Both the position numbers and the translations under genes were made by a program. This document shows, piece after piece, positions 24,163 to 29,453 of a stretch of DNA of 61,860 nt. Positions within the stretch are counted from its first letter, which is position 1, and each line of letters begins with the position of its first letter. The stretch lies in contig CAVUVW010000018.1 of the NCBI GenBank assembly GCA_963745035.1, positions 1 to 61,860 on the forward strand, read 5' to 3'. The notes under the pieces are model-generated. The model was not told where the DNA came from and did no database searches. It saw only the letters and a list, made by a program, of their open reading frames with translations. Source of the stretch: an uncultured delta proteobacterium. Its GTDB lineage: Bacteria > Desulfobacterota > Binatia > UBA9968.

Positions 24163-25741
24163 ATGGTCGTCAAGAAAAGTCCCGGAAGCGGCTATCGGGT
24201 TGTGCCGGATCGGCTGAACATCGCGCGTGAAGTGCTCGACGACTCGATTGCCCGCGGGTGCGGGCCGCGCGCGGCGCTGGTCGGCGACTTCGGGGTTGTG
24301 ACCTATGAAACTTTGCAGCAGCGAGTCACCAGCGTCGCCGCCGGTTTGATCGATCTCGAAGTGAAACAGGGCGATCTTGTGCTCATCAAGATGAGCAATT
24401 CGCCGGAATTCGCCGTTGCGTTTCTCGCGGCGGTTAAGCTGGGAGTCATTCCCGTTCTGGTGAATTCGTTTCTGACGTCGGCCGAGCTGTCTGTCGTCCT
24501 CGAGCAAACCCGCCCTCAACTTATCTTTACCGAGGCAGCGCGCGGCGGGGCCGTCCGCGAACTGCGTGGCAGAGGTTTCTTCAAGCACGTGGTCTGCGCG
24601 GGAGAAACAAACGCAGAAGAGATTTCATTTTCAGCCCTCGAGGGTCGGCCATCAACCGCTATCGTGGCTGCAGATACCCGTAGCGAGGAGCCTGCTTTCA
24701 TTGTTTACACCTCCGGCACGACCGGCAAACCCAAAGGCATCGTTCACGCGCATCGCTGGATCGTCGCACTAGGCGACTTGAATCACTATCGCCTGCCTCC
24801 GCAGGAAAACGACGTGGTGATGGCGACCGGCGAGTGGAGCTTCATCAGCGCGCTCGGGCATAATCTGCTCTTTCCGCTCCGCAACGGCGTCACGGGCGCA
24901 ATTCTACTGGGCCGCGCCACGCCGGAAAACGTGCTCGCCGCCGTTGAAAAGTACAAAGTCACGGTGCTTCATTGCGTCGCGACGGTTTATCGGCGTCTGC
25001 TCGCGATGCCTGATTTTGAAAAAAATCATAATCTTAGACAGCCTGCGCTGCTCGCACTCCACCGGCGAAGCGTTGCGGGAGGCGACTTACAAAGAATGGA
25101 AAGAGCGGGTCGGCTCCGAGTTGTACGAGCATTACGGGGTTTCCGAATACCAGCTCGTTATCGGCAATGGCGTGAGAGATCCGGTGAAGCCCGGATCCGT
25201 CGGCAAAGTTCTTCCGGGAGTTGGCGCGGCGATTCTCGACGACGATTTGAATCCGGTCCCGACAGATGATCTCGGCCAATTCGCAATCTCGACATCGGAT
25301 CCGGGACTGTTCCTCGGCTACTACAAAGATGAAGAGCGCACCGAGGCGGTGATTCGCGACGGGTGGTATCTCACTGGGGACCTCGCCTATCAGGACAGCG
25401 AAGGGTATTTCTTCATCGCCGGGCGGCGCGACGACTGCTTCAAGAGCCGGGGTATCTTCATCTCACCGACGGAAATCGAAAACGCCTTACAAAAGCACCC
25501 CGCGATCGTCGAGGCCGCAGTGATTGCGGTACCTGACGGCGATATCGGCAATACGATTCACGCCATCGTTGTCTTGAGCGGCGGCTTCACGCCATCGGCT
25601 GAATTTGCCCAATCCATCCGCGAAAGTCTCCGCTCGCAGCTCGCGCCATACAAGATTCCTCACACAATCAGCTTCACCGACAGCCTGCCGAAAAGCACAA
25701 TCGGCAAGATCTTGCGCGCTAATCTTGTCAAGCCGGCATAG
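24163..25741 (+). CDS. Acyl-CoA synthetase, benzoate-CoA ligase-like (frameshift near 25035)
   Basis: YTSGTTGKPKG P-loop, STGEAL, YGVSE, TGD, GRRDD, LPKSTIGKI. Confidence 0.88.
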
Positions 25742-25801
25742 GTACAAAACCCGCTCGATGCGGTCTGCGGGTCCTGCTCAATAATTTTTGAATTCATTTT
25801 A

Positions 25802-25829
25802 TCGACTTTAAAGATGGGTGGTATACAAT
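25802..25829 (+). promoter_or_regulatory. Putative sigma70 promoter for the GAPDH pair
   Basis: TCGACT-N16-TACAAT in an AT-rich spacer. Confidence 0.35.
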
Positions 25830-25877
25830 AGCTCATTACAACGACGGCTTAAATTTGCGCGAGACGGAGGTGGCCAC

Positions 25878-26896
25878 ATGCGTGACGGCAAAATCCGAAT
25901 CGGCATTATGGGCTTGGGGCAGATCGGGCGCCAGCTCTATCATCTTGCCCTCGAAAAGGATGACATCGATATCGTGGCGGTGGCCGATATCGGCAAGCCG
26001 GAAATCATCGAATATCTGCTTGAAGAGCGACGGTTTTGACGAGCCGTCGTGCCAGCTACAAGACAATTACTTAGTCAGCGCGAAGTTCCGCACGCGGATG
26101 CTCCAGCTCGCGCGGCCGGAAGAGGTGCCGTGGGATGTCCTCGACGTCGATTGCGTCGTCGACGCTACGGGGCGATACCGCCAGCGCAGGGACGTGGAAG
26201 GGCATCTGCGCGCCGGCGCTAAACGGGTGATTCTCGCCTCCCTGCCGGCGGAGCCGATCGATCGGATCGTCATCCCGGGGGTGAACGAAGGGCACGCCGC
26301 CGCAGGCGATAGAATGGTCTCCGCTGGGTCGGCGACTACCAATGCGTTCGCTCTGCTGTTGCAGTCCCTTGACCAGAGCTTGGGCGTGGAATGCGCGACT
26401 TTGACCACGGTGCACGCCTATTCGAGTGATCAGTCGCTTCAGGATTACGCCCACCAGGATTTTCGCCGCAGCCGGTCCGCGGCGGAAAACATCATACCCA
26501 ACAGCAATGAATCGGCGCGATGGGTGGAGCAGGTTTTACCGCAATTCTCGAACAAATTGAGCGGCTACGCGCTGAACGTTCCGGTCCAACGCGGATCGTT
26601 GCTCGACGTCAACTGCGTCATGCGGGACGGCAATGTGACTATCGATCAGGTGACCGAAGCCATGCGCGCGGCCGCGGCGCGCTTCCCGAACTTGATTGGC
26701 ATCACAGACGATCCGATCGTTTCTTCTGATGTCATCGGCTGCCGGCAATCCCTGCTGTTCGACACGCGTGCGACTCTCAAGGCAGGAAAGAAAATCGTCA
26801 AAGTCTTGGCGTGGTACGAGAGTCTCGGGTCATGCGTGCCGGGTGCTCGACGTGGTCAGGGACTATGATGGGCTCGGTAATGGAGGCAAGCGATGA
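25878..26896 (+). CDS. GAPDH-like paralogue lacking the catalytic Cys (probable pseudoenzyme; frameshifts near 26020 and 26828)
   Basis: GIMGLGQIGR Rossmann motif, VVDATG, GAKRVI, TVHAY, RSAAENIIP, but SAGSATTNA replaces SNASCTTNC. GGAGG RBS; stop overlaps the gap start (ATGA). Confidence 0.85.
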
Positions 26897-27894
26897 GAGT
26901 TGCCATCAATGGATTTGGCCGGATTGGTCGTTCGGTCTTCCGCATTCTCGACCAGCGCGCGGATGCCGATTTGGTCGCGATCAACGATGTCTTCGACCAC
27001 GATGCGCTACGCTACTTGCTCAACTATGATACCGTGATGGGGCGCTTCGAGGGGACATTGCGGCTCGAAGGCGATGAGCTGGTGACCTCCCATGGTCGCA
27101 CCCGCATGCTCCGAGAGAAGGATCCGCTCAAGCTGCCTTGGCGCGAGCTGAATATCGACGCCGTCATCGAATCGACGGGAATCTTCACCAGCCGCGAGCA
27201 GCTCGCCAAACATTTGGAAGCCGGCGCCAAGCGGGTCATTCTCACCGTGCCGGCAAAAGACGAGATCGATTATACCGTCGTGATCGGGGTCAACGACGAC
27301 GGGCTCAAGCCGGAGCACAGGATGATTTCCAACGCGAGCTGCACGACGAACTGCCTGGCGCCTTTAGCAAAGGTGCTGCACGACTCCTTCGGTATCGTCG
27401 AAGGTGTAATCAACACCGTGCATGCCTACACCAACGACCAGCGCCTGGCGGACGTGCCGCATTCGGATTGGCGGCGCAGCCGCGCGGCGGCGGAAAATAT
27501 CATTCCGACTTCCACCGGCGCGGCGAAGGCGGTAGGCGAGGTTTTGCCCGAGCTGAAGGGGCGCTTGGACGGTATCGCCGCGCGTGTGCCGGTGCCGGAC
27601 GGTTCGGTAGTCGATTTATTTGCTGAATTGGACAAGCGCGTGAGCGCGGAGGATGTTCATGCCGCGATCGATGCCGCAGCCGAATCGAAGAGGATGAAGG
27701 GGATTTTGCAGATGATGAAATCGCCCGTCGTGTCATCGGACGTCATCGGCAATTCCCACTCCTCGATTTTCGATCCCGCCTTTACCAGCGTCGCCGGCGG
27801 CAAATATCTGAAATGCCTCAGCTGGTACGACAACGAGTGGGGATACTCCAATCGAGTGTGCGATTTGCTCGGGCTGATCGCGAAATGGGGCTAG
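26893..27894 (+). CDS. gap: Type I glyceraldehyde-3-phosphate dehydrogenase
   Basis: INGFGRIGR, ESTG, SNASCTTNC, HAYT, STGAAKA, RVP, WYDNEWGY. Confidence 0.97.
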   Translation: MRVAINGFGRIGRSVFRILDQRADADLVAINDVFDHDALRYLLNYDTVMGRFEGTLRLEGDELVTSHGRTRMLREKDPLKLPWRELNIDAVIESTGIFTSREQLAKHLEAGAKRVILTVPAKDEIDYTVVIGVNDDGLKPEHRMISNASCTTNCLAPLAKVLHDSFGIVEGVINTVHAYTNDQRLADVPHSDWRRSRAAAENIIPTSTGAAKAVGEVLPELKGRLDGIAARVPVPDGSVVDLFAELDKRVSAEDVHAAIDAAAESKRMKGILQMMKSPVVSSDVIGNSHSSIFDPAFTSVAGGKYLKCLSWYDNEWGYSNRVCDLLGLIAKWG

Positions 27895-27920
27895 GCGGGT
27901 TGACTGAGGATGTACCGGCC

Positions 27921-29453
27921 TCAATCCTGTCTCGTCACGGATTCCAACTTTCCACGATCGATCTTACCGAGGCCGGTGCGAGGTAGGATCGAAACAAACT
28001 CAACGATCTTCGGCGCTTTATACGGGGCCAGCGACTCCTTGCAAAACTGGATCAAGGCTTCCGCGCTCGAGTTGGCGCCGGGATTCAAGACGACGAACGC
28101 CTTCACGGCTTCGCCCCATTCCTGACTCTTGAAACCGATCACCGCTGCATCCGCGACGGCCGGATGCTTGCGGAGCGTGTCTTCGATTTCTTCAGGGAAG
28201 ACGCTGATGCCGCCGCTTTTGATCATGTTCTTCTTGCGGCCGGAAATGTGCAGGTAGCCCTCGTTGTCGAGGAAACCGACGTCGCCGGTGTGGCACCAGC
28301 CGCCTTGGAGAAATTCTTCCGTCGCCTGCAGGTTTTGGTAATAGCCTTGAATTGCCAGCGGGGTGCGGACACAGACTTCGCCTTCGGTGCCGATGGGAAC
28401 CTCGCGGCCGTTGTCATCCGTGATGCGGACCAGTACGCACCAGATCGGTTTGCCGACGGTGTCGCCGTGAGAATCCCAATCGTCGCCGCTGATGGTTGTG
28501 ATCTGGCCGCAGTCGGTCGAGGCGTATGCTTCCGAGACGTGCTGACATAACCGCATGCGTGTCTCGCGTGCGAGATCCTTCGATAAATGCCCGCCGGTAA
28601 TGCCAAGGTAGCGGAGCGAGGATTTCCGGTATTCATCCAACCGTTCGTGACGCAGTAGTCGCTCGCATAGGATTGGCACGAGCATCGTGTAGGTGATCTT
28701 TTCGCGCTCGATGGTCTCCAAAAATAGAGTGGCGTCGAACTTTTCCTGAATGAAGATCGTCCCGCCGAGATAGAGGATGCTCATGACGGAACCGCGGCCG
28801 GCATTGAAATGGACAGGCAGTGCCATCAAGGCGCGCTCATCCGGATGCATGCCCTTGGTGAGACCGTAGTTCATGCAGCGCAGCGAATAGGTTTCGTGAT
28901 TGATGCTGCACGCCTTTGGAAATCCGGTGGTGCCGGATGTGATCATGAGGAGGAAGACATCGATGCCCTGAACTTCGACGTCGGGATCACTGGGCTCGCT
29001 TTGATTGATTGCGGATTCAAAGAGAGACGCTTCGATAGGCTCAGCGTGCATGGAAGAAGATGAGTCGATCACGAGAAGGGTATTGCTTGGCACGTGATCC
29101 CGGGCGATCTTGCTCAGGGCTTGGGTTTCCTTGCGCGTTTCGAGAAGAAAGGCTTGGGGGGCGAAGAAGCGCATCATCGCTTCGCACTCTTGGGCGCTCC
29201 AGTTGAAATCAAACGGGACGGCGACGGCGCCGATCTTGGCTATGGCGAACAGCGCTTCGAAATGCTCCGCGCGGCTGCCGCAAGAGAGGCCGACAAGATC
29301 GCCCTTGCGGATGCCTTGAGCGAGCAGGTAATTCGCCAGCCGATTGGTGCGTTCGTGCAGTTCGCGATAGGTGAAGGTGCGCTGCGCATCGACGATGGCG
29401 CGCTTGTTGGGAAAGTGTTGCGCGTTGCGCGGCAGTGATTCGCCGATATTCAT
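27921..29453 (-). CDS. Class I adenylate-forming enzyme (acyl-CoA ligase)
   Basis: TSGTTGFPK, YASTD, TGD, GRKK, LPRTGLGKI. Confidence 0.92.
   Translation of the reverse strand: MNIGESLPRNAQHFPNKRAIVDAQRTFTYRELHERTNRLANYLLAQGIRKGDLVGLSCGSRAEHFEALFAIAKIGAVAVPFDFNWSAQECEAMMRFFAPQAFLLETRKETQALSKIARDHVPSNTLLVIDSSSSMHAEPIEASLFESAINQSEPSDPDVEVQGIDVFLLMITSGTTGFPKACSINHETYSLRCMNYGLTKGMHPDERALMALPVHFNAGRGSVMSILYLGGTIFIQEKFDATLFLETIEREKITYTMLVPILCERLLRHERLDEYRKSSLRYLGITGGHLSKDLARETRMRLCQHVSEAYASTDCGQITTISGDDWDSHGDTVGKPIWCVLVRITDDNGREVPIGTEGEVCVRTPLAIQGYYQNLQATEEFLQGGWCHTGDVGFLDNEGYLHISGRKKNMIKSGGISVFPEEIEDTLRKHPAVADAAVIGFKSQEWGEAVKAFVVLNPGANSSAEALIQFCKESLAPYKAPKIVEFVSILPRTGLGKIDRGKLESVTRQD

Follow-up and report, generated by a model that had tools for sequence, protein, structure and literature searches.

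A Cys-less GAPDH paralogue overlaps a canonical gap gene

We analysed a 61,860-nt stretch of DNA (contig CAVUVW010000018.1 of GenBank assembly GCA_963745035.1, positions 1 to 61,860; hereafter the window) from an uncultured delta proteobacterium that GTDB places in the Binatia (UBA9968) of the Desulfobacterota. On its plus strand lie, head to tail, two genes of the glyceraldehyde-3-phosphate dehydrogenase (GAPDH) fold: an upstream paralogue without the catalytic cysteine (gene A, protein A) and a canonical downstream gene (gene B, protein B), whose coordinates and motifs are collected in Table 1. The two genes share the four nucleotides ATGA, as a first-pass annotation of the window, made from its letters alone, had stated. 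The same annotation had listed what the upstream copy keeps (the NAD-binding Gly motif, the histidine of TVHAY and the S-loop end) and what it has lost (the catalytic Cys, STGAAKA, the Arg of RVP and WYDNE), and we located each of these retained motifs and substitutions in the sequence.

Gene B is canonical in all its motifs, namely SNASCTTNC (Cys149), TVHAYTNDQ (His176), TSTGAAKA, RVP (Arg231) and WYDNE, and passes the NCBI type I GAPDH model TIGR01534 with 416.8 bits at a cut-off of 367.2. Gene A is broken in the window into three pieces by two frameshifts; Pfam Gp_dh_C (PF02800) matches it with an E-value of 6e-40, Gp_dh_N (PF00044) is found in both N-terminal pieces, and its central piece is 42% identical to gene B over 263 residues. 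A separate, ordinary gap, 55% identical to gene B, lies on another contig (C27) of the same genome, which makes the A-B pair an extra GAPDH here. The promoter scan returned one site upstream of gene A against a mean of 0.9 in shuffled sequences, which is not above chance, and the promoter and terminator scan as a whole likewise gave no result above chance.

Table 1. Features of the A-B locus, in window coordinates.
Feature	Position	Strand	Remarks
Weak promoter-like site (TCGACT, 16-nt spacer, TACAAT) in the 136-nt gap before gene A	25802-25829	+	Chance level
Shine-Dalgarno-like GGAGGTG, 5 nt 5' of the gene A ATG	25866-25872	+	From sequence
Gene A, Cys-less GAPDH-fold paralogue	25878-26896	+	ATG at 25878; three frames here (25878-c.26020, c.26022-26829, 26828-26896) through two single-base insertions; intact form 338 aa
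GLGQIGR, NAD-binding Gly motif of gene A, kept	25911-25931	+	
First frameshift, one extra base	26018-26022	+	P0005 reads EYLLKSDGFDEPS across the site
GSATTNA of gene A	26326-26346	+	Holds the Cys149-equivalent codon
GCG (Ala) at the catalytic Cys149 position, gene A	26332-26334	+	
TVHAY of gene A	26407-26421	+	
His176 equivalent within TVHAY, kept	26413-26415	+	Invariant in 62 of 62 A-family sequences
S-loop end of gene A, DFRRSRSAAENIIP, kept	26458-26499	+	R196, R199, N204, I206 and P207 invariant across the A family and part of the predicted A-B interface
Degenerate phosphate-binding loop NSNESARW, gene A	26500-26523	+	TSTGAAKA in GAPDH
LNVPV of gene A	26572-26586	+	
Asn at the Arg231 position, gene A	26575-26577	+	Defining switch of the A family
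WYESL of gene A	26812-26826	+	WYDNE in GAPDH
Second frameshift, one extra base	26826-26830	+	P0005 reads WYESLGHACRVLDVV across the site
GGAGG Shine-Dalgarno of gene B, within the final codons of gene A	26882-26886	+	From sequence
ATGA, gene B start overlapping gene A stop	26893-26896	+	TGA of A at 26894-26896, ATG of B at 26893-26895
Gene B, canonical type I GAPDH, 333 aa	26893-27894	+	Single open frame

The frameshifts in gene A are probably assembly errors

Deleting one base at each break yields the intact 338-aa form, represented by the public protein P0005, which is 100% identical over the central 263 aa of gene A and continuous through both breaks. Compared at full length with the pieces in the window, P0005 shows a single differing residue (V for D), the first frameshift junction aside. 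We also aligned contigs from public sequencing runs to positions 25600-28000; they stem from near-identical strains (~99%) and not from the window's own reads. A 1452-nt contig of run X2 (12 differences) has one base fewer at ~26018 and at ~26830; run X6, which belongs to another study, contributes two contigs, with 9 and 12 differences, that are each one base shorter at ~26020 and at ~26826. A frameshift also breaks the acyl-CoA synthetase gene immediately upstream (24163-25741, plus strand), leaving two overlapping frames that align to residues 28-187 and 279-503 of an intact paralogue at 27921-29453. Such a density of indels, three in 2.7 kb, is in keeping with an error-prone long-read assembly; the genome comprises 28 contigs and 7.4 Mb. 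Both frameshifts in gene A, which the first-pass annotation had wished to see repaired from reads, are thus probably errors of the assembly, the contigs from other strains giving strong support short of proof. As a separate observation, the third frameshift, in the acyl-CoA synthetase gene, suggests that indel errors extend across the whole assembly.

Gene A is conserved and followed by a canonical gap

Among the best 120 public protein matches to A, identities range from 81 to 100%, and most of the proteins are 335-339 aa long, with a few partial ones (285-329 aa). All 14 orthologues that we fetched are full length and carry SAGSATTNA, NVPV, the degenerate loop and WYES[LI]G[HQ]ACRVL. We estimated the ratio of nonsynonymous to synonymous substitution rates (dN/dS) by the Nei-Gojobori method for 11 related loci and the central piece of the window's gene (12 sequences; 51 of 66 pairs with usable dS), and obtained rough medians of 0.087 for A (range 0.057-0.147) and 0.062 for B (0.028-0.130); the window's central A piece gave 0.06-0.10 against its orthologues. 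A ratio near 1 had been named beforehand as the mark of a decaying duplicate, and the value for A is ~0.09. Judged by these ratios, by the full-length orthologues and by the contigs without the frameshifts, gene A is a conserved gene under purifying selection, neither a pseudogene nor a decaying duplicate.

The arrangement of the two genes is conserved as well. Species-representative genomes hold 13 loci with A (77-86% identity; a 14th locus, at 32% identity, is excluded from the count), and each of the 13 is directly followed by a B-type gene with 83-94% identity to B. Within the genus, an A orthologue (72-85% identity) is present in 19 of 24 genomes, counting the unpublished G205, and is adjacent to a same-strand B in 18 of them; in the nineteenth, G216, B begins at the edge of another contig. 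A was absent from 16 genomes of two other families of the order, and 200 other genomes of the phylum gave no match to A above 39% identity, a sample that says little on distribution and is less informative than the metagenome scan described below. Distant pairs do occur in the phylum genomes G194 and G062, where a Cys-less gene with Asn231 (34-37% identical to P0005) precedes a B-like gene; the two reading frames overlap by 4 nt in G062.

For the metagenome scan, an alignment of 14 diverse Cys-less proteins served as the query and returned 80 loci with 40-86% identity to A. GAPDH-like frames were classed by the residues at seven key positions, A-type being defined by Asn at 231, which gave 77 A-type loci and three with a canonical gene alone. 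Position 149 is Ala in 35 of the 77, Ser in 33, Pro in two, Asn in one and Cys in five, and is uncovered in one; 72 thus lack Cys149 or do not cover it. Directly downstream of A, a B gene is present in all 69 loci with at least 400 nt of room (8 of the 77 are without such room), with the full canonical signature in 67 and as a fragment cut by the contig end in two (L045 and L071). The first-pass annotation had staked its case on homologues without the Cys that are linked to gap, and both features recur across these loci, apart from the five that keep the residue.

The junctions of the 69 pairs are mostly overlaps, of 4 nt in 46 and of 1 nt in nine; three pairs abut, and gaps of 1-10 nt (seven pairs), 16-32 nt (three) and 140 nt (one) separate the others; in some spaced junctions the projected start is not a start codon and the true distance may differ. 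ATGA together with a GGAGG-type Shine-Dalgarno sequence inside the end of A is conserved in 17 of the 19 plus-strand genome loci that this count covers (four minus-strand loci were left out), and in the exceptions, L005 (an A-B fusion) and L015 (a truncated A), the A reading frame is disrupted. In most related loci a GGAGG-like sequence lies 6-9 nt 5' of the B start. The final codons of gene A (26879-26893 in the window, and in related loci) also serve as the ribosome-binding site of gene B (GGAGG). An invariant Gly column is found near the C-terminal end of A (P0005 position 333), and the Gly-rich tail of A may have its cause in such a dual coding constraint with the ribosome-binding site of B.

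When the two genes on each side of the pair were clustered across the 77 loci, the largest cluster comprised 9 loci, and we dropped the reading of a pathway operon because no flanking family occurs in more than 9 of 77. Close relatives carry the source names Candidatus Binatia, Deltaproteobacteria and Chloroflexota, and a clade with Ser149 and Trp209 carries Candidatus Marinimicrobia and Fidelibacterota. Since the arrangement recurs at every related locus that could be examined, it is not a product of chance; as far as these loci indicate, the A-then-B pair is old and widespread, far beyond one genus, in many uncultured soil and ocean bacteria.

A is a single clade that has diverged along with B

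The tree set comprised 61 loci with both genes full length, the window's pair, three canonical-only loci, this genome's other gap and 54 canonical representatives taken from 130 (P0145-P0274; 325-345 aa, with SCTTN and Arg231 motifs). A forms one clade, with a support of 99 in FastTree (182 rows) and an SH-like approximate likelihood ratio of 98 in IQ-TREE under LG+C20 (82 rows, for which 30 loci were chosen, 16 canonical rows were drawn at random and 8 long-branch rows were omitted). The main B group unites 58 of the 62 B genes with two canonical-only loci and one representative. Groupings match between the A and B subtrees, and pairwise distances in A and B are correlated (r = 0.88, reached in 0 of 999 permutations), with A evolving ~1.6 times faster. 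The basal A branches (L108, L104 and L106) keep Cys149 and already have Asn231, and the B genes paired with them do not belong to the main B group. On the tree, the loss of Cys needs two changes and column 149 as a whole at least seven (Ala, Ser, Pro, Asn and Cys); a position at which Ala and Ser replace one another does not hold a catalytic nucleophile.

Constraint is lost at the catalytic and phosphate sites and kept elsewhere

We compared alignment columns between 62 A and 62 B sequences. Mean column entropy is 1.58 bits in A versus 0.96 bits in B, and the two families part most clearly at the sites of GAPDH chemistry. Column 149 is Cys in 62 of 62 B sequences, whereas in A it is Ala in 47%, with Ser, Cys, Pro and Asn making up the others; column 231 separates the two completely, with Asn in all 62 A and Arg in all 62 B sequences. 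The loop at 208-217, without variation in B, is highly variable in A (1.4-3.4 bits), the Gly209 column of A having a top residue of only 27% and an entropy of 3.3 bits. Besides C149 and 208-217, the columns invariant in B and variable in A are R10, N31, T118-P120, N152, P235, D236, D312, W315 and Y317; N313, an NAD contact, is variable in A too.

A has invariant positions of its own, which include the Gly-rich loop, S148, H176, the two S-loop arginines, N202-I204-P205, Asn231 and V-P, and further a V-S-x-D motif (P0005 281-284), K308, W312 and R321. In its NAD motif G12 and G14 are invariant, G17 is kept in 92% and the Asp32 equivalent in 97%; Thr150 is kept in 95%, and Asp181 and Gln182 are conserved (94-98% for this group of residues). 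By this comparison of columns, A drifts in the parts that serve GAPDH chemistry and the binding of inorganic phosphate, while constraint persists on the fold, on the adenosine site, on some residues of the pocket and on contacts of the sheet and the S-loop.

A predicted A-B heterodimer uses the canonical P-axis interface

A structure model of the A-B heterodimer, built from our own alignments (59 A and 59 B sequences), scored 0.72 (median of three runs) against 0.00 for the best control. Of 80 solved complexes in the tool's calibration 58 reach a mark of 0.72, as do 2 of 110 mismatched pairs; these figures are approximate here as our own alignments were used. The three runs share at least 97% of contacts, and the predicted local distance difference test score (pLDDT) of the partner is 90. 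The predicted interface is the canonical large GAPDH interface on the P axis, formed by A residues 172-178, 195-207, 225-247, 279-283 and 295-310. It takes in 13% of positions and 14 of the 28 A-invariant ones (odds ratio 9, p ~9e-7), and the A interface columns have a lower entropy than the rest (1.08 vs 1.66 bits; p = 5e-4). Part of this conservation is fold constraint, since the same positions belong to the core sheet.

Other GAPDH-family genes, apparent fusions and RNA data

Two long reading frames that resemble an A-B fusion were rejected as such. P0394 (677 aa), the sole A-B-like long match, has an Arg-rich linker that looks out of frame and frameshift-like, and the fused open reading frame L005:3986-6004 (672 aa) has one base missing at the junction relative to other loci; both look like sequencing artefacts. 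RNA run X15 gave contigs over parts of A (26167-26688) and B, none of which spans the A-B junction, and since such libraries may contain DNA the run shows neither transcription nor co-transcription. Run X1 had a 0.78 share of sampled words but contig depth in only 9 of 30 position bins, and was left unused.

The searches also brought up GAPDH-family genes of other kinds. Two other genomes of the phylum hold a different tandem pair (L030, G028:C187:271-2345, and L031, G067:C34), with Cys149, His176 and Arg231 in both copies, SSASCTTHC in the upstream one and ~55 nt between the genes. In G062, the strand opposite to the Cys-less/canonical pair carries, at a distance of ~1.5 kb, a 484-aa long-form GAPDH with an N-terminal extension (L029:999-2453, minus strand), so that this genome has at least three GAPDH-family genes within 5 kb. 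In a neighbouring genus (family f87, genus g144), 9 of 11 genomes gave no GAPDH match at E <= 1e-20 with A as the query; these genomes are mostly complete or nearly so, housekeeping GAPDHs of other genomes match near 1e-50, and another type of GAPDH may be present. One representative protein, P0127 (2089 aa), contains four separate GAPDH-like stretches with 29% identity to A.

Comparison of A with known GAPDH relatives

On curated scores and defining residues, A belongs neither to type I GAPDH nor to Epd. With TIGR01534 (cut-off 367.2), P0005 scores 256.0 bits and three other members of the A family score 279.9, 331.8 and 345.4; with the Epd models, P0005 scores 190.8 bits (TIGR01532, cut-off 530.55) and 200.8 bits (NF010058, cut-off 539). 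Bacterial type I GAPDH is regarded as a homotetramer of identical, active subunits, in which Cys149 is the nucleophile and His176 the general base, and Arg231 and the Thr208/Gly209 loop provide the anion sites. A is like type I GAPDH (GapA; TIGR01534, EC 1.2.1.12; e.g. that of Geobacillus stearothermophilus, PDB 1gd1) in its two domains, its length, an identity of 33-42%, the Gly-rich loop, Asp32, His176 and the S-loop arginines, but lacks Cys149, Arg231 and the Thr208/Gly209 loop. With Epd/GapB (TIGR01532, NF010058), another GAPDH paralogue, A shares an altered phosphate site but not the catalytic Cys, which Epd retains.

Mixed tetramers of paralogous GAPDH subunits have a precedent in the chloroplasts of land plants, where GapA and GapB, both catalytic, form one A2B2 heterotetramer and GapB carries, as its distinguishing feature, a regulatory Cys pair on a C-terminal extension. 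The likeness to the tetramer that we propose is one of idea only: A has no catalytic Cys and no Cys-pair extension, its tail being ~20 residues long (14 orthologues) and partly set by the ribosome-binding site of B. The prozymes of trypanosomatids follow a comparable logic: they are paralogues of AdoMetDC without catalytic activity, which form heterodimers with it and activate it (PMC6221367). A dead paralogue is there kept through its pairing with a live enzyme, and A too has lost catalytic residues and is under purifying selection; the enzyme family and the organisms are different. A complex of A with B, or an effect of A on the activity of B, would have the indirect support of synteny, stop-start overlap, interface conservation and the dimer model. 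A GAPDH homologue with a changed catalytic Cys is known from trypanosomatids too: GAPDHL has Pro at this position and possibly a kept adenosine-site pocket (PMC4106842). It is a component of the eukaryotic flagellum, is poorly conserved between species and is not described as paired with an active GAPDH, whereas the A family is strongly conserved and gene-coupled to B.

We found no description of a bacterial Cys-less GAPDH partner in the full-text literature, a search with subscription journals and supplements mostly outside its scope. The matches to A among solved structures were canonical GAPDHs, which gave all the best ones, and engineered C149A/S mutants, with no natural Cys-less relative; the ESM Atlas gave generic GAPDH clusters only, and NCBIfam has no dedicated model for the A family. 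A is probably an undescribed non-catalytic partner subunit of GAPDH.

A two-protein GAPDH as the preferred reading, and its alternatives

We favour, with moderate confidence, the reading that A is a non-catalytic subunit of a two-protein GAPDH that it forms with B. Without the nucleophilic Cys149, Arg231 and the Thr208/Gly209 phosphate loop, A would be unable to carry out GAPDH chemistry. The two proteins would be made from one message by coupled translation and would assemble into a mixed tetramer, most simply an A2B2 built of A-B dimers across the P-axis interface, in which only the B subunits turn over substrate. A would be a structural or allosteric subunit with a presumed effect on B. The kept Gly-rich loop and Asp32 make binding of the adenosine moiety of NAD(H) by A probable, and as His176, Ser148, Thr150, Asp181 and the S-loop arginines are kept too, A may hold a ligand, such as a phosphorylated one, without converting it, which would be in line with an allosteric or stabilising role. 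The first-pass annotation had proposed a pseudoenzyme that co-assembles with Gap; its catalytic losses, the selection on it and its synteny hold, while the co-assembly and a role in sensing NAD(H) or redox state are parts that we infer.

Several observations weigh against this reading. The complex model cannot tell A-B from A-A or B-B, and because GAPDH homotetramers have been solved many times, its pass may stem from likeness alone; the modelling check suggested by the first-pass annotation, like its other computational checks, came out in its favour to the extent that the heterodimer passes its controls. Linked genes co-diverge in any case, so the matching A and B trees speak for co-inheritance as a unit and are no proof of contact. 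The dN/dS ratios, though far below 1, are rough, with dS at 0.9-2.0 and hence near saturation. The pair is dispensable within the genus, as 5 of 24 genomes are without it, namely G207 (98% complete), G208 (99%), G210 (60%), G222 (86%) and G224 (92%), three of them being 92-99% complete, and the genome studied here has its other gap besides the pair. B-type genes can occur without an adjoining A: L112 (1798-2796) is a gap of the B clade with 1.8 kb of upstream sequence free of A, and in the tree it is sister to the B of L088. The search for longer proteins gave three matches and no natural A-B fusion. Five of the 77 A-type genes keep Cys149, so the oldest members may be active enzymes. Finally, His176, Ser148, the S-loop arginines and Asn231 are invariant in A, and Thr150 and Asp181 are kept in 94-95%; a structural subunit has no obvious need of such active-site residues, which leaves room for residual ligand binding or chemistry.

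These points feed two alternatives, both of which we consider improbable. A could be non-catalytic and work apart from B, for instance as a homotetramer of its own with NAD(H) or a phosphorylated metabolite as its ligand; it could also be a buffer, a sensor or a moonlighting protein. The gene overlap would then serve co-expression only. GAPDH interfaces are self-complementary, so an A homotetramer is possible and compatible with the model; the Gly-rich loop, Asp32 (97%), His176 and S-loop arginines are kept, as they might be in a free-standing binding protein; no A-B fusion came up among the long-protein matches; and trypanosomatids are known to have a dead GAPDH-like protein whose role lies elsewhere than with GAPDH (PMC4106842). 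Yet adjacency in 69 of 69 loci and a stop-start overlap in 55 of 69, kept down to 40% identity in A, are the usual signature of stoichiometric subunits and not of mere co-regulation. Half of the A-invariant residues also lie in the predicted A-B interface, and there is no conserved neighbour gene that could be the target of A. We give slightly less weight still to the possibility that A is an active, thiol-free, NAD-dependent enzyme (oxidising, for example, a hydroxyl or hemiacetal with His176 as the base) that is linked to B by metabolism and not by contact. The invariance of His176, Ser148, the S-loop arginines and Asn231, the 94-98% conservation of Thr150, Asp181 and Gln182 and the kept NAD-binding motif would suit such an enzyme, and basal members with Cys149 and Asn231 suggest a site that was changed, and not dead, at the origin of the family. 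A conserved new chemistry should, however, fix the NAD contacts R10, 118-120 and N313, which vary; column 149 toggles among Ala, Ser, Pro and Asn at least seven times, and few parts of A vary as much as the loop at 208-217, which lines the site. Conserved pathway genes are missing from the flanks of the pair, and the curated matches are to GAPDH and Epd models only, all below their cut-offs.

It is very unlikely that gene A is a recently broken pseudogene in this strain, with real frameshifts and a family that functions elsewhere. The two +1 insertions are indeed present in the window sequence, and the contigs used for comparison come from other strains. Set against this are the intact P0005, 100% identical over the central 263 residues, the ~99% identical contigs from two other studies without both extra bases, the third indel within 2.7 kb, in the acyl-CoA synthetase gene upstream, and the low dN/dS of the window's central piece (0.06-0.10).

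Implications of a proposed dead partner subunit of GAPDH

Going beyond the locus itself, we tentatively propose, as plausible though a little short of probable, that many uncultured bacteria, among them soil Binatia-like and ocean Marinimicrobia lineages, have an obligate two-protein GAPDH in which the active subunit is permanently paired with a dead paralogue that binds NAD(H) or a metabolite and sets stability, cooperativity or regulation. If true, such an enzyme would have built into its composition the half-of-sites behaviour over which there has been long debate in GAPDH homotetramers, and ideas on subunit cooperativity and half-of-sites reactivity could be tested on a natural pair. For annotation there is a consequence too: some A proteins are labelled 'type I glyceraldehyde-3-phosphate dehydrogenase' by their source, and a label taken at face value inflates the GAPDH copy number in metabolic reconstructions of these groups. 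Should A and B form one enzyme, GAPDH, a very well-studied core enzyme, would have a second, undescribed quaternary form.

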